From: Bacteroidales bacterium UBA1735
GTDB taxonomy: Bacteria > Bacteroidota > Bacteroidia > Bacteroidales > Paludibacteraceae
Assembly: GCA_002315745.1 (NCBI GenBank)
Contig: DCID01000024.1
Span: 51-64,050 of the forward strand
Direction: 5' to 3'
Length of the DNA stretch: 64,000 nucleotides
Shown: positions 1 to 16,600 of the stretch, piece after piece
How the letters are laid out: the number at the start of each line of letters is the position of its first letter
Position numbering within the stretch: the stretch's first letter is position 1
The notes under the pieces: model-generated
Told to the model about the DNA's origin: nothing
The model's input: the letters and a program-made list of their open reading frames with translations, nothing else
The model's database searches: none
Translations under genes and position numbers: made by a program

Positions 1-68
1 TCACCGCCCTCATCACCCTCATCTACAACTTAGTCAAGTCTATCAAGCGCAAGGATCCCAAAGCCTAA
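1..68 (+). CDS. 3' end of an unidentified CDS (partial; ...TALITLIYNLVKSIKRKDPKA)
   Basis: Open frame entering from the left edge, TAA at 66-68, followed by a hairpin/T-run terminator at 93-127. Confidence 0.3.
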   Translation, partial: TALITLIYNLVKSIKRKDPKA

Positions 69-92
69 GCGCCATCCCGACTAAGTAACGCA

Positions 93-127
93 ACGCCATC
101 TACCACCAAGTAGGTGGCGTTTTTTTG
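93..127 (+). terminator. Rho-independent terminator
   Basis: 11-bp stem ACGCCATCTAC / GTAGGTGGCGT (one G:U), 6-nt loop, then TTTTTTT. Confidence 0.7.
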
Positions 128-285
128 GTCTCCGAAAAAGTGCAAAAATTTTGATTTTACAGCAAAGCGACAGAGGATACTTTGTGGATAGAACGTAGGC
201 GCTGTAAGAAGGTGGGGTTCTCGCGTGTAGTCCGCACATTATACTCCATTTGCAACTGAAGCAATGGTTCTGCCTCTAGATCCAA

Positions 286-363
286 TACAACTTTTTTTTG
301 ATATTCACAAATTTGTGAATACTTTTTTTGAAAAAACACTTCCCCCCATCGTGCCGGAGAGCG
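286..363. repeat. Repeat family A, copy A1 (contains 18-bp perfect palindrome ATTCACAAATTTGTGAAT at 303-320)
   Basis: TACAACTTTTTTTTGATATTCACAAATTTGTGAATACTTTTTTTGAAAAAA...CACTTCCCCCC...TGCCGGAGAGCG is shared with 963-1122. Confidence 0.85.
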
Positions 364-379
364 CGGTGTAATACGCCAG

Positions 380-406
380 ATTTTAGCCCAATATTTGACC
401 TATATG
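380..406. repeat. Repeat family B, copy B1 (ATTTTAGCCCAATATTTGACCTATATG)
   Basis: 25/27 identity with 2294-2320, same orientation. Confidence 0.8.
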
Positions 407-408
407 CC

Positions 409-438
409 AAAAAAAAGGATTACATTGTTTGCAATCCT
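409..438 (-). terminator. Rho-independent terminator of the toxin-antitoxin operon
   Basis: On the minus strand: AGGATT-11 nt loop-AATCCT followed by T8, starting 9 nt after the toxin stop. Confidence 0.65.
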
Positions 439-446
439 TCTTGTAT

Positions 447-731
447 TTACTTTTTCTTGAAAAGTTCGTCATGTGTACCCGTGTTGGTTAATAGTAGTGT
501 TAATCGCTTTTTGTTTTGCTTCCAAACCATTAGCCAATCATCATCTAAGTGACACTCCCACAAACCAGCATATTTACCATGCAGCATATGAGGATCATAA
601 GAATCCGGAAGACTCCCTTTCTCGGTTAAAATCTCCAATGCTTCTCTAAAGACTTGTACATCTTTATTTAAATCTTTGAGGCAATGGCGCAAGCCATTTT
701 CAAAGTTGCTAGTAGTTCGATAGATATACAT
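447..731 (-). CDS. Type II toxin, YafQ/RelE family (mRNA interferase)
   Basis: C-terminal HMLHGKYAGLWECHLDDDWLMVWKQNKKRLTLLLTNTGTHDELF matches the YafQ pattern. An alternative ATG at 746 overlaps the antitoxin stop. Confidence 0.75.
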   Translation of the reverse strand: MYIYRTTSNFENGLRHCLKDLNKDVQVFREALEILTEKGSLPDSYDPHMLHGKYAGLWECHLDDDWLMVWKQNKKRLTLLLTNTGTHDELFKKK

Positions 732-732
732 A

Positions 733-924
733 TTACACAATAGCATTAAGCATAGTGTCTATCGAAGAAAACGTGTGAACTCTACCAGCCTCAATATCAT
801 CCATTGCTCGGTCAATAGCATTCTTTTTCTCAATCTTTAGCCCAAGAGCTCTAAATATGGATTGATACTTTTTTAATTCCGCAGTAGGAATATGTAATGT
901 TACTCTCTCATAACAAGTTGCCAT
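733..924 (-). CDS. Putative antitoxin (small protein directly upstream of the YafQ-like toxin)
   Basis: 63-aa ORF abutting the toxin gene and 25-30 nt downstream of a canonical promoter. Family not recognised by eye. Confidence 0.55.
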   Translation of the reverse strand: MATCYERVTLHIPTAELKKYQSIFRALGLKIEKKNAIDRAMDDIEAGRVHTFSSIDTMLNAIV

Positions 925-956
925 AGTGATTCCCTTTCTTTTTTCGTTTTCGGCTG

Positions 957-988
957 CAAAGGTACAACTTTTTTTTGATATTCACAAA
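957..988 (-). promoter_or_regulatory. Bacteroidota-type promoter of the TA operon
   Basis: Minus strand -7 TAccTTTG (957-964) and -33 TTTG (985-988), 20-nt spacer. The -33 lies in the centre of the 18-bp palindrome at 980-997. Confidence 0.65.
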
Positions 989-1122
989 TTTGTGAATACT
1001 TTTTTTGAAAAAAAGTGCATTTTTTGATATTTTTGGATAACACTTCCCCCCCTCGTCGTTGTAGTAGCACCGCAGGTGCGATTAGTAGGAGCTCCGCTCC
1101 GCCCCTCGCGTGCCGGAGAGCG
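963..1122. repeat. Repeat family A, copy A2 (with internal insertions at about 1015-1040 and 1056-1110)
   Basis: Same core as 286-363 including palindrome ATTCACAAATTTGTGAAT (980-997). The 55-bp GC-rich insert carries two 5-bp hairpins (GCACC/GGTGC, GGAGC/GCTCC). Confidence 0.85.
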
Positions 1123-1164
1123 TTGATTAGACAACAAAAAAGTGGAAGCGCACAGTTTCTTTCC

Positions 1165-1201
1165 AAGAACAGAGCGAGGTACTCCCCCACTCTGTTCTTT
1201 T
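1165..1201. terminator. Hairpin, possible terminator downstream of the SIR2-like gene
   Basis: 10-bp perfect stem AAGAACAGAG / CTCTGTTCTT with a 15-nt loop. The T-run follows only on the plus strand, so strand and function are uncertain. Confidence 0.35.
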
Positions 1202-1251
1202 ATAGACCTTACACGTCGCCATCGAATATGGACCAGTATGCTCCGTTTTAT

Positions 1252-2247
1252 CTAGTCTAGTTCATTAGGAATACAGAACTGCGATGTATTTGTTATATGT
1301 ATTATGTCTATAGGAGCACTACCTATTGGTTTTACTCCTAATCTACCTCGTATCAAATCATCCATCACTTCTGCCTCACCATTTTGATTATATATTTTGC
1401 TTAATTTAGGCATAGAACTGAAGATAAATTTATCCATCGATCGATTTACATATGGAAACGAATAGCCAATAACTACAAGTACTTCAGTATCTTGTACCCT
1501 TTGTTTTAGCAACTCATTAAAATTCTTCGGTCCCCTACCGACCTCCCATACATAAGACAACTCATTAGTAATATTACTAGCAGGAGGATCCAAATACATC
1601 GCAGGCAAATATGACTCCCACATACTTTTACCAATCCCTAATAAGATATCTAACAACTGGGCATCATCAATGTGGTGAAATGCAGTTCCATTAAGTTTAG
1701 TCACCGAAAAACCATCATGTTTCACGCCTGCTACAATCCTCGATTTATTAAGCACACTCATATACGACCATAATTCCTCTGTAGATTTATTAGGCCAGTA
1801 CGAACTATATGCTAATTCAAATTGGGCATCATAGTTCCATGTTAGAATATTCATATTGGCAGGGAACGCCCCATAATCATCCACAAGTGAAGCAATCCAT
1901 CCGTCATAGCGTAGATCTCGAGGATATTGAATCTGCAGCAGAGTCATAAACATGGATAAGACTCGTTTAAGACGCTCATATTCTTGCCATTGTTGTGTAG
2001 CAAACAGAATGCGCGCATAAGTGTCTATGGTAGGATATTCTTTGCATTTATTCAACAGCCAATTCATTTCCGAGTGTAAACGGGTTCTTATAGTATGGTC
2101 TTGCGTTTGTCCTTCAATCCAATTCATGCAACGTATACATTCCTTTCCAAAATCTTTGATTGTAGGAAGTCCACGTAAGCGATTTTGGCTATTGTCCAAT
2201 TGACCTGCGCTTGCTCCAGCACCTAATAAATATGTTACTTTGCTCAT
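1252..2247 (-). CDS. SIR2_2-like / AbiH-fold protein (divergent)
   Basis: Ordered motifs YLLGAGASAG..LPT, TWNYDAQFE, KLNGT, VVIGYSFPYVNRSMD. ATG at 2247 preferred over GTG at 2289. AT-rich. Confidence 0.5.
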   Translation of the reverse strand: MSKVTYLLGAGASAGQLDNSQNRLRGLPTIKDFGKECIRCMNWIEGQTQDHTIRTRLHSEMNWLLNKCKEYPTIDTYARILFATQQWQEYERLKRVLSMFMTLLQIQYPRDLRYDGWIASLVDDYGAFPANMNILTWNYDAQFELAYSSYWPNKSTEELWSYMSVLNKSRIVAGVKHDGFSVTKLNGTAFHHIDDAQLLDILLGIGKSMWESYLPAMYLDPPASNITNELSYVWEVGRGPKNFNELLKQRVQDTEVLVVIGYSFPYVNRSMDKFIFSSMPKLSKIYNQNGEAEVMDDLIRGRLGVKPIGSAPIDIIHITNTSQFCIPNELD

Positions 2248-2293
2248 ATTTTGATTCTCAATTATAATGTCCAATTTAAAGGCCTTCACAAAA

Positions 2294-2320
2294 ATTTTAG
2301 CCTAATCTTTGACCTATATG
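2294..2320. repeat. Repeat family B, copy B2 (ATTTTAGCCTAATCTTTGACCTATATG)
   Basis: 25/27 identity with 380-406. Lies 7 nt after the AbiH-like stop. Confidence 0.8.
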
Positions 2321-2327
2321 TTTTTTT

Positions 2328-3254
2328 CTACTCCTCTCTCACAGCATCTCCAAACCAGAATACTTTAGCATTACGTATCCCAAGTGTATTAATTACCTTC
2401 TCTGCCGCAGCCTTATCTATTTCAGTATAGTAACTCAGATGCCATAATGTATCCTCTGCAACCATCTCCCTTATCTTATCCAAATAGGGCAGATCTACTT
2501 CGCCATATGACAAACCATATACCACTACCCTATCTACAACTTTTATCCGATTCCAAAACTCCCAAAATCTGCGTATGATAATAGACGTATCTTTCCGTTC
2601 CTCATTGGCAACTCTAACTAACTGTTCATATGCCTCGTCTTGAAAGAACATATTTTCCTCATAGCGATAGTCGTCCGCATTCAATAAATGACTATGTCCC
2701 AGGATTATTACATCATCGCTATTGCGTCTTCCATGAATATATGCAATTTTTTGACGAGGTATATGATAAAGTAGCTCCAACGTTTCAGAATAATTGAAAC
2801 ATAAGTACAAATCGTTTACTCCGAGATGACTCAAAGCCTTATCGTATGCACATGGATCAATCTCTATATTCTTTACCCATTTTTCGAATGACTCATGCAG
2901 AACTGTCAAGGCCTCGCTTAGCATTTGTGCTGGTCTGTCCGCCAATGCTGCGGTCGATTGCATGGGATGATCCTCGTCTATTTCTTCATCTTCGTTGCTT
3001 TCATTATAGGAATCTATAGGACTTGCATAACCCAATGCATACTCCAAATCAGACCAAAGATAAGGTTCTCCTTCTTCATCTTCTAGAGTGTAAGTACTCT
3101 CTAAGAGTGTCTGGTAATATCCAAGTTGACAGCATTTTGAACTCCAGAAATCCGAAAAAGAGGTCTTAAAACCATGATGCAAATCGAATCCATTCCCGAT
3201 GACAAATAGCGTTTTGCATGAATTGCCCCATAGATCTTGTTCTATTACTGTCAT
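2328..3254 (-). CDS. AbiH-family abortive-infection-like protein
   Basis: N-terminal FVIGNGFDLHHGFKTSFSDFW, then CFNYSETLE, AYIHG, VVYGLSYGEVDLPYL, which is the AbiH motif order. ATG overlaps the TGA of the GT4 gene (ATGA at 3251-3254). Confidence 0.75.
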   Translation of the reverse strand: MTVIEQDLWGNSCKTLFVIGNGFDLHHGFKTSFSDFWSSKCCQLGYYQTLLESTYTLEDEEGEPYLWSDLEYALGYASPIDSYNESNEDEEIDEDHPMQSTAALADRPAQMLSEALTVLHESFEKWVKNIEIDPCAYDKALSHLGVNDLYLCFNYSETLELLYHIPRQKIAYIHGRRNSDDVIILGHSHLLNADDYRYEENMFFQDEAYEQLVRVANEERKDTSIIIRRFWEFWNRIKVVDRVVVYGLSYGEVDLPYLDKIREMVAEDTLWHLSYYTEIDKAAAEKVINTLGIRNAKVFWFGDAVREE

Positions 3255-4531
3255 ATCATACTACATTCTTTGGACACAACCTCCCTATACAACTCCACAT
3301 ACTGCTTAGCCACAACATCGACGGCATGCTTACGTACCACCGACTCACGGGCAGCGGTGCCCCACTCTGTTGAGTGGGCGATGCACTCCTGGATACCGGC
3401 AGCTAAGTCAGTGGCATCCTTCTCCTTCGCTAGATAACCATTCACCCGGTGCTCCACCATATCGCTATTGCCACCTATATTGAAACAGCAGACAGGAGTA
3501 CCACAACTGAGGGACTCCATGATGGCATAACTAAGGTTTTCACTTAACGAAGGCACCACCATCACATCGGCGGCACGATAGGCGGCGATCAATTGTTCCC
3601 CACCTATATAGGTAAAGACATGCGTTGGAAGTTGTTTTAACTCGGGCATTGGCGCATTAGCTCCAATCACTATCAGTTCTGTATCTTGTGGCCACGAATG
3701 TTGCTCAATCGCTTGCAGCAAGTACGCAAAACCTTTATTGGGATCCGTAAGCGCATTGACAGCACCATAGAGGATATAGTGCTTCGTAGGATCTAAGTTC
3801 AGTACACGACACGCCTCTGCCCGATCTCCATCACAGAATACATCAGTGTCAATCGGATTGGGTATGACGCGTATATCTACGTCCTTAAACAACGCACTCC
3901 GCCGAGCACACTCCGCTAACCAATGACTAGGGGTAACGATGTGTAGATTAAGATCCTTATAGGCTTGCGCTTTGCCTTTCCAGACCTGATGGCTCAAGTC
4001 CTCGGAGTCCTTCGAACCAAGTAAAGGGCAGCACCCGCACTGTTGTTCATATCCACGGCAATCATATGGTACATGGCACACACCGGCGAAGGGCCAACTA
4101 TCGTGCAATGTCCATACGATAGGCTTATTAGTAGGCAGTTCGCGTAGATTGATGAAGCGCTTATTGATCCAATGTAGGTGAAGCACATCATACTCCGGTT
4201 TATGCAGTGAACCACCAATGTATGTGCTGCGCAGATCGGACATAAAAAGTTTAGAACGATTCGGATATCTATTCCAACGAGCATGCTGGATCTTATTTTT
4301 TATCTTGGCTACCATCCAATCGCCTATATGGTAGAATACATTGTGCGGTAAGAATGCGTCTATAGGCACCACATCCGCGGATGCGGTTCGTTTATCCTTG
4401 ACCAACATCCGGCTACGGATGGCAGCATTGTTCAAGCCATTCACGCCCACCTGAATGCGAGAAGCAGCATTGGCTGCACCACCGCCATTATCAGTGAACG
4501 AAACACTCAATATGCTTATTCCTTGCTCCAT
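3251..4531 (-). CDS. Glycosyltransferase family 4 (GT-B)
   Basis: E-x7-E region ESLSCGTPVCCFNIGGNSDMVEH. Last transferase of the polysaccharide operon. Confidence 0.8.
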   Translation of the reverse strand: MEQGISILSVSFTDNGGGAANAASRIQVGVNGLNNAAIRSRMLVKDKRTASADVVPIDAFLPHNVFYHIGDWMVAKIKNKIQHARWNRYPNRSKLFMSDLRSTYIGGSLHKPEYDVLHLHWINKRFINLRELPTNKPIVWTLHDSWPFAGVCHVPYDCRGYEQQCGCCPLLGSKDSEDLSHQVWKGKAQAYKDLNLHIVTPSHWLAECARRSALFKDVDIRVIPNPIDTDVFCDGDRAEACRVLNLDPTKHYILYGAVNALTDPNKGFAYLLQAIEQHSWPQDTELIVIGANAPMPELKQLPTHVFTYIGGEQLIAAYRAADVMVVPSLSENLSYAIMESLSCGTPVCCFNIGGNSDMVEHRVNGYLAKEKDATDLAAGIQECIAHSTEWGTAARESVVRKHAVDVVAKQYVELYREVVSKECSMI

Positions 4532-5577
4532 GTCTTGATTTGTTTCTTTATATTTTGTACCTTTTCGACACCAGATTCTCCGACCATATTTCTGACCATC
4601 CTTTTAAAATCGCTCCATAATGCTCTAAAATTGGATAGGCGTCTTACGAGCCTTTGAAATATGTACATATTTTTCTCGCATATATTCCTAAATACAATAG
4701 TACTATACAAAGGTATCTCATTAGCCAAGAAGCGCGATTTATACGGATTACTTCCCCATAGTAAATGTATTTCTTTTATGCCATTCTTAATTCCATCACA
4801 TATAGTCAAATACATACAAATATGCCCCACATCGTACTTATTGTATTCCGGATCACTGGCAATTGCCTCCACAAACATGGTATGTTTAATATGATAAGTG
4901 ATCAAACCAGCAACCAACTTACCATCTACCTCCAAACTATATACCACCCCCATATTATGCAATATAGGCAATATATTATTCACCCACTCATCGTCCAAAC
5001 CTGATACAATATTCTTACCAGCCATCCTTAATTGATTGAAAGTGACAATATTGCGAATTACCCCCCCCTGAATTTTTGTGCCATTATTCGCAATAAACTT
5101 ATACGACACACCCGATTCATATTGAGGAAATGTACGATTTAATCGCGATATATAGTTCTTTGTATGCCGTCTCATATGAGGTGATAGAGATGCTTCATAT
5201 TCCTCGATAGTTTGCGGCAACAATAGTACATGGTCATTGGACTCCATAGTCATTATAAATGGATGTTCCTCTGCTGAATTTTGTTCTAATAACTTAGACC
5301 ATTGTATTCTTCTAACCTTAGGATGGTGGACAAAAATATAGTTAGATATAGCCGATATATTTGCATCATCTATAGACCATAAGGCATTGTTTATCACTGC
5401 ACATGACCTATTTAATGTATAAGGAACTAAATCCTCTAAATTATCTCCATCAAACACAGCCACATATTGCTCATTAAGATGGAAATCCAATGCACAAAAC
5501 GGAGAGTTATATCGATTCTCTAGCCATTCGGAATAGTTAGGAAGATTATAGGATTCTATGTGCTCTATATGCTTCAT
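4516..5577 (-). CDS. FemAB/CelD-like GNAT-fold acyltransferase (putative)
   Basis: 353-aa ORF in the operon. C-terminal half resembles acetyltransf_6/FemAB-type domains. Weak by-eye call. Confidence 0.4.
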   Translation of the reverse strand: MKHIEHIESYNLPNYSEWLENRYNSPFCALDFHLNEQYVAVFDGDNLEDLVPYTLNRSCAVINNALWSIDDANISAISNYIFVHHPKVRRIQWSKLLEQNSAEEHPFIMTMESNDHVLLLPQTIEEYEASLSPHMRRHTKNYISRLNRTFPQYESGVSYKFIANNGTKIQGGVIRNIVTFNQLRMAGKNIVSGLDDEWVNNILPILHNMGVVYSLEVDGKLVAGLITYHIKHTMFVEAIASDPEYNKYDVGHICMYLTICDGIKNGIKEIHLLWGSNPYKSRFLANEIPLYSTIVFRNICEKNMYIFQRLVRRLSNFRALWSDFKRMVRNMVGESGVEKVQNIKKQIKTWSKE

Positions 5578-6584
5578 GATATACTCAAGGTATTGTACAT
5601 TAGTATATTCTTAGATTTAGAAGAATCACTTGTTGTATAGAAGAAATGCATGACATTGTCTATCACAAATGCCGTCGGTTTATAATAATACTGCCGATAG
5701 TGGCACACATTCTCCATCACATGATTGAGTACAAGAGGCACAAAATCGAATTCAAAATGTTTCCAATCTTTTGACACCCCTAACATTAAATGATCCTTTT
5801 TCTCCTCACACGCCACCATATATAGTTTGCCTCTATGCTCGAATAAATCAAAGTGCCACAAATCAAATCGATGCAATTTGGGTACAAACCACAGTTTACC
5901 ACCAATCCGTATCTGCTTCCACTTATTTATCGTGACGGGGGCTTTCACTTCGACCCTCTCTAATCTAAAATCTGGTTCCGTCAACGAAGTTCCATGCCAT
6001 ATCGCGATACCTTTATTCATACGTTGAGGTTCGTATTGGTACCATGCAGCGTAAAACAAGTACTCCCCATTATGTTTCATTAAAATAGGACATTGTGTAT
6101 AGTCGTACTCTAATGTATCATTCTGCAAATAATCAAGCGGCTCCGAGAAATGTTCGCCGTCATCCGTAGAAATGCCCCGCACAATCATTATCTGTCCTTT
6201 ACTCACACAATAGGCACTCTCCACCTCCCGCCAAAAGACATAGAGGCGATGACCATCCCTAAAGATATACGGATCTGAGTTATATCCACCATTAGTAGGT
6301 GTATCACGAAGCACCACTCCACTCTGCCCTAAATCTTTCAAATCATTCGCTCGGTAGAGTATAGGGTTCTCTAACTTATTACTCCATGCTGGCAGTGGAC
6401 TCTGTACCATCCAGTACTTATAACCGAATAAACCATCCGCATAATAGCGAATACAGGGATGCAAACAATCATCCTTGTATTTGTCTTCCGGTGTATGCAC
6501 CTCTATCTGCTGAGGATGGCAAGACATCTGCTGCCGCGGATACCACCAGAGACGACTAAATAACTGTTTTATTACGCCAAGCAT
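5574..6584 (-). CDS. Hypothetical polysaccharide-locus protein (possibly beta-propeller fold)
   Basis: 336-aa ORF overlapping both neighbours. W/Y-rich repeated strands. No motif firmly recognised. Alternative start at 6527. Confidence 0.4.
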   Translation of the reverse strand: MLGVIKQLFSRLWWYPRQQMSCHPQQIEVHTPEDKYKDDCLHPCIRYYADGLFGYKYWMVQSPLPAWSNKLENPILYRANDLKDLGQSGVVLRDTPTNGGYNSDPYIFRDGHRLYVFWREVESAYCVSKGQIMIVRGISTDDGEHFSEPLDYLQNDTLEYDYTQCPILMKHNGEYLFYAAWYQYEPQRMNKGIAIWHGTSLTEPDFRLERVEVKAPVTINKWKQIRIGGKLWFVPKLHRFDLWHFDLFEHRGKLYMVACEEKKDHLMLGVSKDWKHFEFDFVPLVLNHVMENVCHYRQYYYKPTAFVIDNVMHFFYTTSDSSKSKNILMYNTLSIS

Positions 6585-7515
6585 AGAGGTGATAAATAAT
6601 GAATAGTAAATCTTTAACTAAACCTTGCGATTTCTTTTTGGCCCAACAATGCATATCTCGCATCTTATTAACCTCCATAGTGACAGGATGCTGTAGAGGC
6701 AAAATGGGACATGTAGGGCGATTGCCATCTCCGTTATTGGACGTCGTATGGGTTCCTTCCGCATCGAAACCAATATTACTAATGAGATTAACCGCCGGAT
6801 GGATAGTTATCGCACTTTGACGGAAAAGATGTATCTGCATCTGATAATCCCAGTAACTCTTCTTACTACTATCATTCTGTATTGCTCGAACAATGTACCA
6901 CCAGTACTCTGCCTCGGCTAAATCTTGTGTCAGGCGATATACTTGTTTAACAAATGTCCACAAATTCAATGACCTTAAGTCTAAGTCGAAACCTTGCCAC
7001 ACCTCACGATACGATGCCCACGCGCCAGTGCACATGTAGCGGCTAAAACCGTAGGATGATTTGTGATTTGTAATTCGTGATTGTTGATTTAAAGCTTGAG
7101 ACCAACGGTCATCGTAGAGGGTGGAATTGATGAATTTAACAGGGGTATCCTTATAGCGATTGAGTAGTTCCTCACAATATGGGAAGAAGTCAGGATGAGC
7201 GAGACAGTCATCTTCCATGACGATTCCTTGTTCTACGTTATCGAAGAACCAGGATATGCCCGTCATCGGACCTGCGCCACAACCGAGGTTTATATCACTG
7301 AAGTAAGTGTGCAGTTTAGTGTTAGGGAAAGTGAGAGTGAGAGACGAGATGACATCCCGCACCTGCTGACATTTGAGTGCATCGTTGGCGTTCCCATCGC
7401 GTGCCCCATCCTGGAAGACATATAGATCCTTCGGAGTCGCTTCTAAGATCCGTTGCAGCACCTGACGCGTATGGTCGGGGCGGTTAAAGGTTATGAGTAA
7501 TATTGGAATATTCAT
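6556..7515 (-). CDS. GT-A fold glycosyltransferase (GNT-I/HlpA-like)
   Basis: N-terminal IPILLITFNRPDHTRQVLQRI...VFQDGARDG and an EDD acidic motif. Confidence 0.55.
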   Translation of the reverse strand: MNIPILLITFNRPDHTRQVLQRILEATPKDLYVFQDGARDGNANDALKCQQVRDVISSLTLTFPNTKLHTYFSDINLGCGAGPMTGISWFFDNVEQGIVMEDDCLAHPDFFPYCEELLNRYKDTPVKFINSTLYDDRWSQALNQQSRITNHKSSYGFSRYMCTGAWASYREVWQGFDLDLRSLNLWTFVKQVYRLTQDLAEAEYWWYIVRAIQNDSSKKSYWDYQMQIHLFRQSAITIHPAVNLISNIGFDAEGTHTTSNNGDGNRPTCPILPLQHPVTMEVNKMRDMHCWAKKKSQGLVKDLLFIIYHLYAWRNKTVI

Positions 7516-7519
7516 GTTA

Positions 7520-8500
7520 TCAAACTATATAGCGATTAACATAAGGGATCTTCTTAATTAGCCAAGTAAAAAATGCACCAATAATAAAAGCCATAATACA
7601 TATTATAGGAATATAAAAGATTGGTTGCGGAACAAAACGCTGAACACGTGTATAAATTTGAATTAAAATTTCCATGTGTATTAAATAAATGCCAAGTGTT
7701 AGAGCAGATACATACGAGACAATGTTCCGCAAATTTTGAGACATTCTTGAGGCCAAAATATTACAAGTATAAAAGGCAGCGACTGCGGTAAACATAGTTG
7801 TTGGAGCCAAATAACTATGTAAAAAAAATTGAGTCTCATCATTCGCTCTCGTACATATAAATGATCCTATAAATGTTACCGCCACGCCTAATAGGCCTAA
7901 TATAATCGCTGGTATAATTATTCGCTTATTATGAACATTCCTTCTACACCAATCTCCTAAAACAAAATATCCAATATACCCAGAAAAAAAGAAATGTTCA
8001 CACTGATCAAATGGAAAACAATCTGTATATGTGCAAGCGCTATCAATTATTATCCAGATTGCCCAAATTAATAAATAATAATCACGCATTTGATTAGACA
8101 ACATGCGTAATATAGGGATAGCCATGTACAAGGCAATAATCATAGGAAGAAACCAAAGATGTCCCGCAGTTAGTCCGAAAGGCAAAATTGAGCCATGCGC
8201 AAACCAATGATAAAAAAGAGTCCATACTACTAGTACACACGCTAATCTCAATATATTATTACAATATAAACGTCGTGTGGTTATTTGTTTTTTTTCATCT
8301 AAAAACAAAGCACCACTTATCATAAAAAACAAGGGAACCGACCATCTCACAGAACTTGCAAAGAACATACATATACACCATTCTATCGTTAAAATAGGAT
8401 AATCTCTACCTGGGCATAAACCTGTTCCAGCCACATGTACCATAATCACTGCTAAACAAGCAAAAACTCTCATCAAATCATATGACACATTCTTCTCCAT
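7520..8500 (-). CDS. Acyltransferase family 3 (O-acetyltransferase), integral membrane
   Basis: About 10 hydrophobic segments. N-terminal DLMRVFACLAVIMVHV is typical of acyltransferase_3. Confidence 0.7.
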   Translation of the reverse strand: MEKNVSYDLMRVFACLAVIMVHVAGTGLCPGRDYPILTIEWCICMFFASSVRWSVPLFFMISGALFLDEKKQITTRRLYCNNILRLACVLVVWTLFYHWFAHGSILPFGLTAGHLWFLPMIIALYMAIPILRMLSNQMRDYYLLIWAIWIIIDSACTYTDCFPFDQCEHFFFSGYIGYFVLGDWCRRNVHNKRIIIPAIILGLLGVAVTFIGSFICTRANDETQFFLHSYLAPTTMFTAVAAFYTCNILASRMSQNLRNIVSYVSALTLGIYLIHMEILIQIYTRVQRFVPQPIFYIPIICIMAFIIGAFFTWLIKKIPYVNRYIV

Positions 8501-8533
8501 ACCTCATTAATTTCAAAAATTAAAATTAAACAT

Positions 8534-9823
8534 TTATAATCTTCCATCAATAATTGAACGATCTAATATACCTTTTACATCATACACCACTCCACCCTCA
8601 CGAACGAGCGAACAGATATCTATCTGCATAAACTCCCTGTGGGCTACGCCCAATATGACTGCGTCATATAGTTTAGAGTTTAGAAGTGATAGGTTAGAGG
8701 CAATATCTATACCGTATTCTTTCTTCACTGATTCGGGGTTGGCCCACGGGTCATAAATAGTAATATTATCGGTATATTCCTTTAGCGTGTGATAAATATC
8801 CACCATCTTCGTATTACGTATGTCTGGGCAATTCTCCTTAAAGGTGATACCTAATATAAGTATCTTGGCATCCTTCACCATCACACCTTTCTTATTCATC
8901 AGTTTGATAGTCTGCTCTGCCACGTATTCCCCCATACCATCATTGAGACGACGAGCATTGAACATCACACGGGGTAGCACGCCATACACCTGCGCCTTCT
9001 GAATAAGGTAATATGGATCAACCGAGATACAGTGACCACCGACTAATCCAGGCTTAAGTTTAATAAAATTCCACTTACTAGCTGCTGCATCTATCACGTC
9101 CTGCGTATCAATCCCCATAGCATTAAAGATCTTCGCTAACTCATTCATAAAAGCGATATTGACATCGCGCTGGCTGTTCTCAATGATCTTAGAAGCCTCT
9201 GCAACTTTGATGGTTGGAGCCTTATGCGTACCATTGATAAGTACACTATTATAGACCGCATCCACATAGTCTGCTATCTCTGGCGTCGAACCCGATGTGA
9301 CCTTACGGATCTTCTCTACCGTATGCTCCTTGTCGCCCGGATTGATACGCTCCGGGCTATATCCTGCGAAGAAATCCGTATTAAACTTCATTCCACTGAC
9401 TTTTTCGACTACAGGGAGACACTCCTCTTCGGTCACACCTGGATAAACGGTTGATTCATATACCACTACATCCCCCTTGGAGATAACCATACCAACCACC
9501 TCCGATGCGCCCCATAGTGGACGCAGGTCTGGGCGGTTATTTTCATCAACAGGAGTCGGTACAGCCACCACATAGTAATTGCAGTCACGAATAGCCTCCA
9601 AGTCCGTGGTACAAACGAAACCATGCTTATTGATTGCCTCTTGAAGGAGTTCATCACTCACTTCTAGGGTAGCATCATGACCCGACATAAGTCCGTCCAC
9701 ACGACGTTGATTCATATCATAACCTACGGTCTTAAATTTAGTAGAAAAAAGGCGTGCCAATGGCAGTCCTACATAGCCGAGACCAATGACGGCAATTTTA
9801 GTGTCTTGTAATGATTTATACAT
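8534..9823 (-). CDS. Nucleotide-sugar dehydrogenase (UDP-glucose/GDP-mannose dehydrogenase family, TviB/WbpO-like)
   Basis: KIAVIGLGYVGLPLA Rossmann motif and catalytic GGHCISVDP. Confidence 0.85.
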   Translation of the reverse strand: MYKSLQDTKIAVIGLGYVGLPLARLFSTKFKTVGYDMNQRRVDGLMSGHDATLEVSDELLQEAINKHGFVCTTDLEAIRDCNYYVVAVPTPVDENNRPDLRPLWGASEVVGMVISKGDVVVYESTVYPGVTEEECLPVVEKVSGMKFNTDFFAGYSPERINPGDKEHTVEKIRKVTSGSTPEIADYVDAVYNSVLINGTHKAPTIKVAEASKIIENSQRDVNIAFMNELAKIFNAMGIDTQDVIDAAASKWNFIKLKPGLVGGHCISVDPYYLIQKAQVYGVLPRVMFNARRLNDGMGEYVAEQTIKLMNKKGVMVKDAKILILGITFKENCPDIRNTKMVDIYHTLKEYTDNITIYDPWANPESVKKEYGIDIASNLSLLNSKLYDAVILGVAHREFMQIDICSLVREGGVVYDVKGILDRSIIDGRL

Positions 9824-14495: not shown

Positions 14496-15746
14496 TCATA
14501 GGGGAACAATATTCCCTCGAATATTACTTGGGAAAACAACTCCTAAATAATCTGAGAATTCATCCTTTCTCACACTTACGATCTCAAAAGAATGAGCCTG
14601 CTTATGCATAAAATAGGTTTGACCATACGAGAAATATAAATTATCAATACGATATATACCCTGACACATTAGACCTCCAGGAATACTAAACTCAGTTCTA
14701 TATCGTCCTTTCTTTAAAGGTTTTTCAGCCGTACCCACATTAAAGATGCATAAATCTTGCATATTGTAAATATGCGGATTGACTCCTAACGAAATACCAT
14801 CTTCCATCACTTTAAATTCATACACCAAGCGAAAACTCGTTTCATTCGTGAGTATATTATCTTCACTCTCGATGGCACAACGTAATATCCTTAAAGCGCC
14901 TTCCCCCGGTGCATCATTTTCACTCCATACCATATCATTCGCCACATCAGCCAATCCTCCCGATAAGTATTTATCTATAACACTTCCGACAAGCCCTGTC
15001 GTTTTGACCATACCATTTTCCAGCAAGATACCAGTATGGCACAACGCTCTCACACTCGCCATATTATGGCTCACGAAGAGCACCGTTCTACCCTCGCCCT
15101 TCGATACATCCTGCATCTTACCGATGGCTTTCTTCTGGAACTCGGCGTCACCGACGGCGAGGACCTCGTCCACGACCAGGATCTCGGGATCGAGATGGGC
15201 GGCGACGGCGAAGCCCAAACGGACCATCATACCGCTACTGTACCGCTTAACCGGCGTGTCGATATAGCGCTCGCAACCGGAGAAATCGACGATCTCGTCC
15301 AGCTTACGCTGGATCTCATTATGCGTCATGCCCAGGATAGCGCCGTTGAGGAAAATATTCTCCCGACCCGTCATCTCGCTATGGAAACCTGTACCGACCT
15401 CCAGCAAGCTACCTATCCGACCATGCGCCCTAATAGTGCCCGTCGTGGGACCCGTGACGCGACTGAGAAGCTTGAGCAAGGTGGACTTACCCGCACCGTT
15501 CTTACCGATGATACCGACGACGTCGCCCTGCTCGACGTTGAACGTGATGTCACGCAGTGCCCAGACGTAGTCGGAGGAGCCCTTCGAGGTGCGGTCGTTG
15601 GTCTCGCCAATCTTGAGGTAAGGGTCCTCCTTACCCAGGACGTTCGTCACCCAGAAGCGACGGATATCGTGTGCCAAGGTCCCCGTACCCACCAGTCCCA
15701 ACCGGTACTGCTTACTCACATTCTCAAATTCAATTGCATTTGCCAT
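14496..15746 (-). CDS. Polysaccharide/O-antigen export ABC transporter ATP-binding protein (Wzt/TagH-like) with C-terminal extension
   Basis: Walker A GKNGAGKST, signature YSSGMMVRL, Walker B ILVVDEVLAVGD, then a ~170-aa non-ABC C-terminal domain. No permease gene adjacent. Confidence 0.85.
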   Translation of the reverse strand: MANAIEFENVSKQYRLGLVGTGTLAHDIRRFWVTNVLGKEDPYLKIGETNDRTSKGSSDYVWALRDITFNVEQGDVVGIIGKNGAGKSTLLKLLSRVTGPTTGTIRAHGRIGSLLEVGTGFHSEMTGRENIFLNGAILGMTHNEIQRKLDEIVDFSGCERYIDTPVKRYSSGMMVRLGFAVAAHLDPEILVVDEVLAVGDAEFQKKAIGKMQDVSKGEGRTVLFVSHNMASVRALCHTGILLENGMVKTTGLVGSVIDKYLSGGLADVANDMVWSENDAPGEGALRILRCAIESEDNILTNETSFRLVYEFKVMEDGISLGVNPHIYNMQDLCIFNVGTAEKPLKKGRYRTEFSIPGGLMCQGIYRIDNLYFSYGQTYFMHKQAHSFEIVSVRKDEFSDYLGVVFPSNIRGNIVPL

Positions 15747-15791
15747 ATTATGGTTGTTATATTTTCGTATTTGTTTTTTTAATTTACTTCA

Positions 15792-15829
15792 ATACAAGAA
15801 TGATTTTATTTTTGGATACAAGAATGATT
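15792..15829. repeat. Two direct copies of ATACAAGAATGATT (15792-15805, 15816-15829)
   Basis: Core ATACAAGAA is the reverse complement of the TTCTTGTAT core at 16021-16066. Followed by 20-bp tandem units AGAATGAyTAGGrATGTTT (15821-15861). Confidence 0.8.
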
Positions 15830-15861
15830 AGGAATGTTTAAGAATGACTAGGGATGTTTTT

Positions 15862-15978
15862 AGAATGCTTCTGCGCTATCGCGCTCTCTGTCTCCGCTTA
15901 TTAGGTAGTCCTGGTAAGTAAACTTCCCGATACTACCTACTAACCGTAGCCACACCCCTATCGGTGTTACAGCATTCT
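15862..15978. other. Predicted multi-hairpin structured element (possible leader RNA or sRNA; strand unknown)
   Basis: Closing stem AGAATGCT/AGCATTCT (15862-69/15971-78). Internal hairpins TAGGTAGT/ACTACCTA (15902-09/15932-39) and ACACC/GGTGT (15952-56/15963-67). Confidence 0.3.
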
Positions 15979-16020
15979 ACAAAACATCAAACCTCTTCCG
16001 TAACATATGTCACTGTTCAT

Positions 16021-16066
16021 TTCTTGTATCAACGACTTCTTGTATCAACAACTTCTTGTATCAAAC
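16021..16066. repeat. Three direct copies of TTCTTGTATCAAC at 16-bp period (16021, 16037, 16053)
   Basis: Read directly. Inverted relative to the left copies at 15792-15829. Confidence 0.8.
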
Positions 16067-16072
16067 AATATA

Positions 16073-16540
16073 CTATTTGTCCATAATGTGATTAGGCACA
16101 TACTTGTAACCTAATGGCTTCTGACCAAAATTAATTAACACACCTAGTTTCTTACCCGTAGCCTTAAGATAATTAAGCAACTGCGCCGTATGCTCCGGCA
16201 GGAGCGAATTCACCATCTTGAGCTCAATAATAATCTCGCCATAGCACACCATATCAGCGCGGTAAGTACAATCGAGAGGGCATCCCTTATAAAGTACTGT
16301 GATCTCCTTCTCCGACTCGAACGGTATATCCCGTAGCTGTAGTTCACGACGCAACGCAGCATGATAGACCAACTCAGAAAAGCCCTGACCAAGCGTATTC
16401 TGTACCTCCATCGCAGCACCAAGGATAGCGAAGCACTCGTCCTTATAGAGCGCAGGAGTCTCCGGCGTAGAAGTCTTCCCAGAAAAGTGTGTTTGGGCGG
16501 CGCGGAGGTCGGATAAGGTCGGTAGTTGGTGCGGGTGCAT
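16073..16540 (-). CDS. GxxExxY family protein (PD-(D/E)XK nuclease-like fold)
   Basis: GQGFSELVYHAAL (GxxExxY), ...ADMVCYGEIIIELK..., LLNYLKATGKKLGVLINF. Start at MHPHQL (16540) because the promoter occupies 16564-16595. Confidence 0.75.
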   Translation of the reverse strand: MHPHQLPTLSDLRAAQTHFSGKTSTPETPALYKDECFAILGAAMEVQNTLGQGFSELVYHAALRRELQLRDIPFESEKEITVLYKGCPLDCTYRADMVCYGEIIIELKMVNSLLPEHTAQLLNYLKATGKKLGVLINFGQKPLGYKYVPNHIMDK

Positions 16541-16563
16541 AGGCGTGCTACTCAATTCGGGCG

Positions 16564-16595
16564 CAAAGGTACAACAAATTTTTGGAATACGCAAA
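16564..16595 (-). promoter_or_regulatory. Bacteroidota-type promoter (truncated family C repeat, copy C0)
   Basis: Minus strand -7 TAccTTTG (16564-71) and -33 TTTG (16592-95), 20-nt spacer. Confidence 0.6.
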
Positions 16596-16600
16596 TATTT

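Follow-up and report, generated by a model that had tools for sequence, protein, structure and literature searches.

Does the 3' end of a surface-polysaccharide operon in Bacteroidales bacterium UBA1735 carry a two-gene abortive-infection (Abi) module, or do defence genes lie there side by side by chance? The question is raised by two adjacent minus-strand genes in a stretch of 64,000 nucleotides (assembly GCA_002315745.1, contig DCID01000024.1, positions 51 to 64,050), hereafter the window: an AbiH-family gene at 2328-3254 (AbiH) and the open reading frame (ORF) that follows it at 1252-2247 (ORF2). In a preliminary description made from the sequence, the two had been read as a paired effector and sensor. 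Both ORFs were found at their claimed minus-strand coordinates, with every quoted motif present in the translations; as a whole, the observation could be confirmed and its interpretation is partly supported.

With moderate confidence, we regard the segment as a defence islet of three independent cargo units at a variable 3' end of the polysaccharide operon, in which AbiH and ORF2 are chance neighbours. The first unit would be a stand-alone AbiH with a SIR2 fold and its dyad positions kept, the second a likewise free-standing gene from a SIR2-fold family that has no name and carries Asn at the catalytic-His position, and the third a YafQ-type toxin-antitoxin (TA) pair under its own promoter. 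AbiH and ORF2 would be read through from the glycan operon up to a hairpin behind ORF2, and the operon end would serve as a variable slot that collects defence-like cargo. Co-expression of the two genes with the glycan would therefore come from their placement at the operon end and not from a dedicated pairing.

Co-occurrence of the AbiH and ORF2 families

The neighbourhoods of 88 ORF2-family loci (80 from species-representative genomes, together with metagenome contigs) and 87 AbiH loci (80 of them from a metagenome scan) were compared. A clear AbiH gene was present in one of the 88 ORF2-family loci, at a distance of 9 kb (L027), and a weak AbiH fragment in another (L012). None of the 87 AbiH loci contained an ORF2-family gene. 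Where context was available, the nearest relatives of ORF2 (52-53% identity) come after a HipA TA pair, a 243-aa ORF without annotation or an ABC ATPase, and have no AbiH beside them. Among the direct neighbours of AbiH on either side, in about 80 loci, 93 Pfam families were seen, none of them in more than two of the 127 neighbours scanned; AbiH behaves as a stand-alone gene without a conserved partner. Because the two families essentially never co-occur in the 87 and 88 loci and their nearest relatives have other neighbours, a conserved paired AbiH/ORF2 system of sensor and effector was rejected. Adjacency in other genomes, named beforehand as the mark of such a module, was not observed.

A genuine two-gene Abi module, in which the proteins would, for instance, form a heteromer or divide the roles of sensor and effector, and which would be deliberately coupled to the expression of a phage-receptor glycan, is consequently regarded as very unlikely. 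SIR2 defence proteins often act as oligomers, and structures of SIR2-HerA and ThsA are among the structural matches of ORF2. The two genes also share a strand, are separated by 80 bp without an intervening terminator, and are both predicted to have a SIR2 fold. SIR2-like gene pairs do exist, since tandem AbiH genes occur in two of the 87 loci (metagenome loci L112 and L125), where the direct neighbour of the main AbiH also belongs to the AbiH family. Against this stand the missing co-occurrence, the different neighbours of the nearest relatives of either gene, the recurrent partners that the ORF2 family has of its own (restriction-modification, R-M, genes), and the single-gene nature of the Lactococcus AbiH system (PMC13064643).

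The two genes had also been called paralogues. Membership of the same SIR2 superfamily holds, whereas recent common ancestry does not: a comparison of the two family profiles by hhalign gave a probability of 3.7% and aligned just the C-terminal GxS...D motif, and pairwise BLASTP of AbiH against ORF2 detected no significant similarity.

Fold and active-site motifs of the two proteins

AbiH matches Pfam PF14253 over the full profile (1-260 of 260; E=8.5e-48, 164.1 bits against a cutoff of 30.9) and the AbiH model of PADLOC (2.3e-21), which bears out its family assignment. The protein has each of the 17 residues that are invariant in an alignment of 32 family sequences, among them G20, N21, G22, F23, D24, N154, H174, G247, S249 and D254. 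The motif set GNGFD, FNY, IHG and GxSxxxxD is present, and the dyad positions N154 (FNY) and H174 (IHG) are kept. For the AlphaFold2 (AF2) model (predicted local distance difference test, pLDDT, 92.2), the best Foldseek matches were SIR2-HerA (5.2e-4), CobB and DSR2. By this model AbiH has a SIR2-like fold, in agreement with published work that already describes it as a SIR2-like ('SIRim') protein (bioRxiv 10.1101/2024.09.18.613514; PMC13064643). In an hhalign comparison of the AbiH profile with Escherichia coli CobB, GNGFD was plausibly aligned with GAGIS, FNY with QNID and IHG with MHG.

The window AbiH is new but otherwise ordinary for this known family. With the AbiH of Lactococcus it shares the full-length profile match, the GNGFD, FNY, IHG and GxSxxxxD motifs, the SIR2-like predicted fold and variable neighbours. 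It differs in its Bacteroidales origin and in its place behind the last glycan gene of an operon, whose stop codon its start overlaps; the Lactococcus gene is carried on an integrative conjugative element. The latter is an experimentally defined Abi gene according to Prevots 1996, as cited in PMC13064643, and its mechanism is not yet established (PMC13064643). Because the predicted SIR2 fold is combined with intact Asn/His dyad positions, AbiH is probably an infection-triggered, NAD+-consuming abortive-infection protein. Its closest relative (76% identity, L090:826-4818) has the Tiamat gene TmtA 172 bp downstream (PADLOC 5.6e-227), which is a defence-island context.

For ORF2, no significant Pfam, NCBIfam or PDB sequence match was obtained. 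PDB sequence searches with ORF2, one relative and both family profiles returned nothing meaningful, and no model in Pfam, NCBIfam or PADLOC names its family. The Pfam SIR2_2 model (PF13289), which had been named beforehand for a check, gave 13.5 bits (E=0.079) and fell below its gathering cutoff of 24.5. The same model matched 20 of 52 family members at E<=0.1, three relatives just passed the cutoff (24.9-26.5 bits), and weak matches of ORF2 to the PADLOC SIR2 and Aga_SIR2 models were seen. At the level of structure the SIR2 assignment was upheld. The AF2 model is confident (pLDDT 91.3; predicted template modelling score, pTM, 0.91), and the top 50 Foldseek matches in the PDB are all SIR2/sirtuin proteins, the best being SIR2-HerA (8sub_B, 1.2e-5). 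Matches include SIR2-HerA, Avs5 and ThsA, with modest template modelling (TM) scores of 0.38-0.46. The predicted structure is a Rossmann fold of the SIR2 type into which a helical module is inserted.

Five motifs could be placed on this model: GAGAS (residues 9-13), DxRYD (111-115), WNYD (137-140), KLNG (184-187) and IGYSFPxxNxxxD (260-272). Their order is sirtuin-like, strands 1 to 4 being followed in turn by GAGAS, WNYD, KLNG and IGYSFP; in the AF2 model, strands E3-8, E132-136 and E181-184 precede GAGAS, WNYD and K184-L185-N186-G187, respectively. W137, N138, Y139, D140, R113, Y114, N186 and G187 are invariant across 255 of 255 family members, as is G9-A10-G11-x-S13 in all 252 of the 255 members whose sequence spans these positions. 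From motif order, N138 of WNYD would be the equivalent of the catalytic N112 in the NxD motif of ThsA. Where a catalytic His in an HG motif would be expected after strand 3, ORF2 has KLNG, the equivalence being drawn from motif order. The Asn noted earlier in place of the His of the LHG motif thus holds for the whole family, with N186 (placed by motif order and AF2 strands) as the predicted occupant of the catalytic position. This His is needed for the NADase activity of ThsA (H152) and SIRanc (H206) (10.1101/2024.09.18.613514).

The replacement of a required His, and a score under the Pfam SIR2_2 cutoff, would fit a catalytically dead SIR2 pseudoenzyme or a functionless, decaying remnant. We consider this unlikely, since the ORF is intact and of full length, its model is confident, and the Asn is invariant in all 255 members alongside WNYD, RYD and GYSFP, in a large family of uniform length. 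Such a pattern of conservation is that of purifying selection on a functional pocket. The invariance of the active-site motifs argues for a working ligand or catalytic site and not for a decayed copy. The family itself comprises more than 1,099 relatives in a word-indexed search and 2,740 clusters at 50% identity in an exhaustive one (E<=1e-3). Nearly all of the best 150 of these 2,740 clusters are single-domain proteins of about 320-370 aa. In species-representative genomes 411 loci were found, and the best 80 are almost all from Bacteroidota. The family is thus large and found mainly in this phylum, and it appears to be uncharacterised. With the His missing, ORF2 is not assumed to be a ThsA-type NADase; it is probably a nucleotide- or NAD-binding defence accessory or effector with a chemistry unlike that of the ThsA/DSR-type NADases.

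Compared with the described SIRim proteins (ThsA, DSR1/DSR2, SIR2-HerA/Nezha, Avs5-SIR2 and the SIR2 proteins associated with pAgo), ORF2 has the same fold, GAGxS loop and NxD motif, and its family shares their defence-island context. It differs in being a single domain of about 330 aa without a sensor or partner domain and in the invariant Asn at the His position. No conserved HerA, TIR, STAND or Ago partner was seen beside ORF2-family genes either.

The operon end, its probable transcript and its cargo

On the minus strand of the window, an extended row of genes that all point the same way has the features typical of an ABC-transporter-type surface-polysaccharide locus. It consists of an ABC ATPase, three GT2 genes, a TupA-like ATP-grasp gene, a GT8 gene, a UDP-glucose dehydrogenase, an Acyl_transf_3 gene, a glycosyltransferase (GT)-like gene, a GH43-like gene, a GNAT gene and a GT4 gene. 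No Wzm-type permease gene was identified beside the ABC ATPase. GT4 is followed by AbiH (308 aa), ORF2 (331 aa), a 63-aa ORF (733-924) and a 99-aa toxin (447-746), so that the position of the first two at the 3' end of the glycan operon was as described before. The features are:

3251..4531, minus strand: GT4 glycosyltransferase, last glycan-synthesis gene of the operon (Pfam Glyco_trans_1_4 7.6e-24, Glycos_transf_1 3e-21, Glyco_transf_4 2.5e-8)
2328..3254, minus strand: AbiH-family gene, 308 aa (PF14253 over full length, PADLOC AbiH, AF2/Foldseek)
2248..2327, minus strand: spacer between AbiH and ORF2, 80 bp (RNA fold, motif scan, sequence)
1252..2247, minus strand: ORF2, orphan SIR2-fold gene, 331 aa (AF2, Foldseek, family-wide motif invariance)
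1158..1206, minus strand: perfect 15-bp hairpin (inverted repeat, shuffle-tested fold)
957..964, minus strand: exact Bacteroidetes -7 promoter motif, TACCTTTG (motif scan)
733..924, minus strand: antitoxin candidate, 63 aa (ORF list and gene call in the public contig; putative role from position)
447..746, minus strand: YafQ/RelE-type toxin, 99 aa (PF15738, NCBIfam RelE_StbE)
286..336 and 963..1013, no strand: 51-nt direct repeat, copies 1 and 2 (repeat search)

The stop codon TGA of GT4 and the ATG of AbiH overlap as ATGA (3251-3254), as had been seen before. The ATG at 3254 is the sole usable start of AbiH, because no alternative ATG, GTG or TTG lies between it and the conserved LFVIGNGFD start. 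ORF2 begins with the ATG at 2247, from which its N-terminus, MSKVTYLLGAGAS, agrees with the family consensus; the GTG at 2289, given as the start in the ORF list, was rejected for this reason. A motif scan of the minus strand found no exact TAnnTTTG (the Bacteroidetes -7 motif) in front of AbiH or ORF2, in line with the earlier observation. The closest exact copies are inside AbiH (3055-3062) and at 957-964, before the antitoxin candidate. Within the 80-bp spacer the best near-match to the -7 motif is AATTTTTG at 2289-2296, and the spacer RNA (-9.9 kcal/mol, z=+0.26 against shuffles) has no terminator-like structure. About 45 nt past the ORF2 stop there is a perfect 15-bp hairpin (minimum free energy -39.9 kcal/mol, z=-3.2; none of 200 shuffles folded as well), and this structure at 1158..1206 probably marks the end of the operon transcript. 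Scans for sigma-70 promoters and intrinsic terminators are uninformative for Bacteroidetes and gave fewer sites than in shuffled sequences. Because of the start/stop overlap, the missing promoter motif and the lack of a terminator before the hairpin behind ORF2, AbiH and ORF2 are probably co-transcribed with the glycan genes by read-through.

Both genes had been described as AT-rich, and with 38-39% GC against a backbone of 49.6% they are, but nearly the entire glycan locus is equally AT-rich. Since GC is low in the locus and in its cargo alike (33-44% against 49.6%), composition gives no sign of a separate insertion of AbiH and ORF2. At 14750-16600 of the window, the 5' part of the ABC ATPase and its upstream region reach 56% GC, a sharp contrast to the adjoining glycosyltransferase genes of 33-37% GC; a PDDEXK_3 gene (16073-16594) lies just upstream. 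No tRNA genes were found in the window, and an Rfam scan of positions 1-3500 gave a sub-threshold RybB match and nothing else.

What follows GT4 varies between related operons. In L181 (6305-12308), a GT4 gene 75% identical to that of the window precedes a homologue of the GH43-like gene of the window, and stop and start again overlap by 4 bp; further on lie a 757-aa ORF without a family match, a 604-aa LmuB-like ATPase (PADLOC 4e-12) and a third ORF. Together these genes may form a Lamassu-like system at the corresponding end of that operon. In a metagenome-assembled genome of Paludibacteraceae (L182; GT4 67% identical), a membrane protein and a GT2 gene come next. Neither AbiH nor ORF2 is present after the orthologous GT4 in L181 or L182. 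At least four further loci (L096, L160, L164 and L172) have AbiH homologues among their glycosyltransferase genes or behind them, directly behind in L160 and L164. The L096 case (1335-7988) is a gut-metagenome polysaccharide locus into which AriA/AriB-like (PARIS-type) genes, an Mrr_cat gene with a CapP-like peptidase, an AbiH gene (40% identical to that of the window) and NTP_transf_5 are inserted, flanked by glycosyltransferase and rmlC genes. Such cases are a minority: glycan genes lie within 5 kb in 4-5 of 58 AbiH loci and in 1-2 of 78 ORF2-family loci, raw counts without a background rate that are lower bounds from a limited reference set. Among the latter, L015 places its ORF2-family gene after GT2 and TupA genes.

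These arrangements bear on whether one or both genes could be accessory enzymes of glycan biosynthesis or modification, for instance a nucleotide-sugar- or NAD-binding Rossmann protein. The translational coupling of AbiH to GT4 through the ATGA overlap, the AbiH homologues in or at the end of glycosyltransferase operons in the above four loci, the L015 arrangement, and close ORF2 relatives with DegT and/or ATP-grasp genes downstream of them or an ABC ATPase before them are all consistent with it. This explanation is nevertheless improbable. Glycan genes are near just the few loci counted above, the contexts consist mostly of R-M, Abi, TA or conjugative-element genes, and operons with the orthologous GT4 do without either gene; in L096 the AbiH stands beside PARIS-like and Mrr-like genes, and the Lactococcus gene, in the cited account, is a defined Abi gene.

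As in defence hot-spots at variable locus ends, differing defence-like cargo follows orthologous glycan genes in the window and in L181. The difference is that the anchor here is a surface-polysaccharide operon from which the cargo is apparently read through, while the cargo of described hot-spots lies mostly beside integrases, tRNA genes or prophages. No described defence genes embedded in capsular polysaccharide (CPS) operons of Bacteroides were found in a literature of incomplete coverage, which is weak evidence of novelty.

The third unit, a YafQ-type TA module that had been noted to follow the two genes, was confirmed for its toxin (PF15738, E=6.2e-23; NCBIfam RelE_StbE, 44.3 bits against a cutoff of 27.9). 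The 63-aa ORF at 733-924 overlaps the toxin start by 14 nt and has no Pfam or PADLOC match; its position suggests an antitoxin. Ahead of it lies the exact -7 motif at 957-964, and the pair would accordingly be transcribed separately from its own promoter. A toxin recognized by hidden Markov models, a small overlapping upstream ORF and a promoter motif of its own are what is expected of a Type II TA system of the YafQ/RelE kind. The pair is bracketed by the perfect 51-nt direct repeat (286-336 and 963-1013), which contains a 20-nt palindrome, TATTCACAAATTTGTGAATA; weaker similarity around the copies reaches to 363 and 1122, and the copy at 963-1013 directly abuts the promoter motif. The repeat looks like a duplicated promoter/operator region or the insertion footprint of the TA cassette.

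ORF2 relatives in restriction-modification operons and the meaning of the locus

The immediate neighbours of ORF2-family genes are rich in DNA methyltransferases, AAA_15/AAA_21 ATPases, SNF2/ResIII helicases, HpaII, MmeI, UvrD and RhuM. In nine of 82 distinct loci, the gene lies between same-strand Type III mod and res genes (PADLOC MTase_III 2e-154 and REase_III 1.8e-157). The gaps measure 0-6 bp in six loci (L046 of Alistipes timonensis, 4087-9697; L030, L036, L050, L065 and L068), and the arrangement is looser in L014, L018 and L089. Alistipes, Sangeribacter and Muribaculaceae are among the genera and families concerned. An Alistipes mobilisable element carries a member between an Eco57I-type methylase and a T5orf172-helicase. 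A full-length distant member with 26% identity, annotated as hypothetical, is encoded in Leptospira phages of the LE1 type (vB_LbrZ_5399-LE1, vB_LinZ_10-LE1 and Lin_34; records KF114879.1, 54801-55820, KX656785.1 and KF114880.1). A tblastn search of PLSDB plasmids with ORF2 gave no match. Such contexts are the signature of a mobile, defence-associated gene. The resemblance to Type III R-M consists in the insertion of ORF2 relatives between mod and res in several Bacteroidales genera; in contrast, the ORF2 of the window has no adjoining R-M genes, and the canonical system has two genes. No paper among those searched gives a third, SIR2-like gene a role in Type III R-M operons, a weak indication of novelty given the incomplete literature coverage.

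In five Flavobacteriaceae (L052, L069, L079, L083 and L086; about 9.2-12.3 kb), an ORF2-family gene lies between an upstream gene of about 250 aa, which clusters with short-chain dehydrogenase, and a Schlafen gene of 377-380 aa (AlbA_2 and DUF5929, with a weak PADLOC PDC-S50 match). This could be a conserved trio or merely inherited synteny.

A more specific proposal, which we hold as a tentative possibility, is that the ORF2 family forms a distinct, catalytically re-wired branch of the defence SIR2 proteins that serves as a plug-in effector or backup, inserted between mod and res in some Bacteroidales and standing alone in other places, and that here, together with AbiH, it is read-through cargo of a glycan operon. 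If true, the cell would turn on an intracellular defence at the same time as a particular phage-receptor glycan.

Several points weigh against the reading of three independent units at the operon end. The sampling behind the absent pairing is thin: usable context was limited to three ORF2 relatives with more than 50% identity and two AbiH relatives with more than 55%, some on short contigs. This leaves a small probability for an AbiH-ORF2 interaction specific to this lineage. Co-transcription is deduced from sequence features, and as Bacteroidetes promoters are degenerate, ORF2 could be expressed independently from the near-match AATTTTTG in the spacer. The equivalence of N186 with the His is predicted from motif order, the strand-(H/N)G geometry of the AF2 model and the span of the SIR2_2 match; placement of the ORF2 profile on E. 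coli CobB by hhalign was out of register, hence unreliable, and was not used.

In terms of annotation, the result is that the proposed new paired Abi system is not borne out as a conserved one and a wrong assignment is avoided. Two leads are worth following, the ORF2 family and the slot for defence cargo at the end of the glycan operon. The ORF2 family, with a strictly conserved pocket in which Asn takes the place of His and with its repeated occurrence between mod and res of Type III systems, may represent a new SIR2 chemistry or a new kind of R-M accessory; by this change and by the striking R-M placement of its relatives, ORF2 is a new variation on the SIR2 defence theme. Interchangeable defence-like cargo at the end of a glycan operon would physically link the choice of capsule or O-antigen with intracellular defence. 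Such a link would be relevant to Bacteroides fragilis, in which phage susceptibility is reported to be decided by combinations of CPS type and defence systems (PMC13139388).

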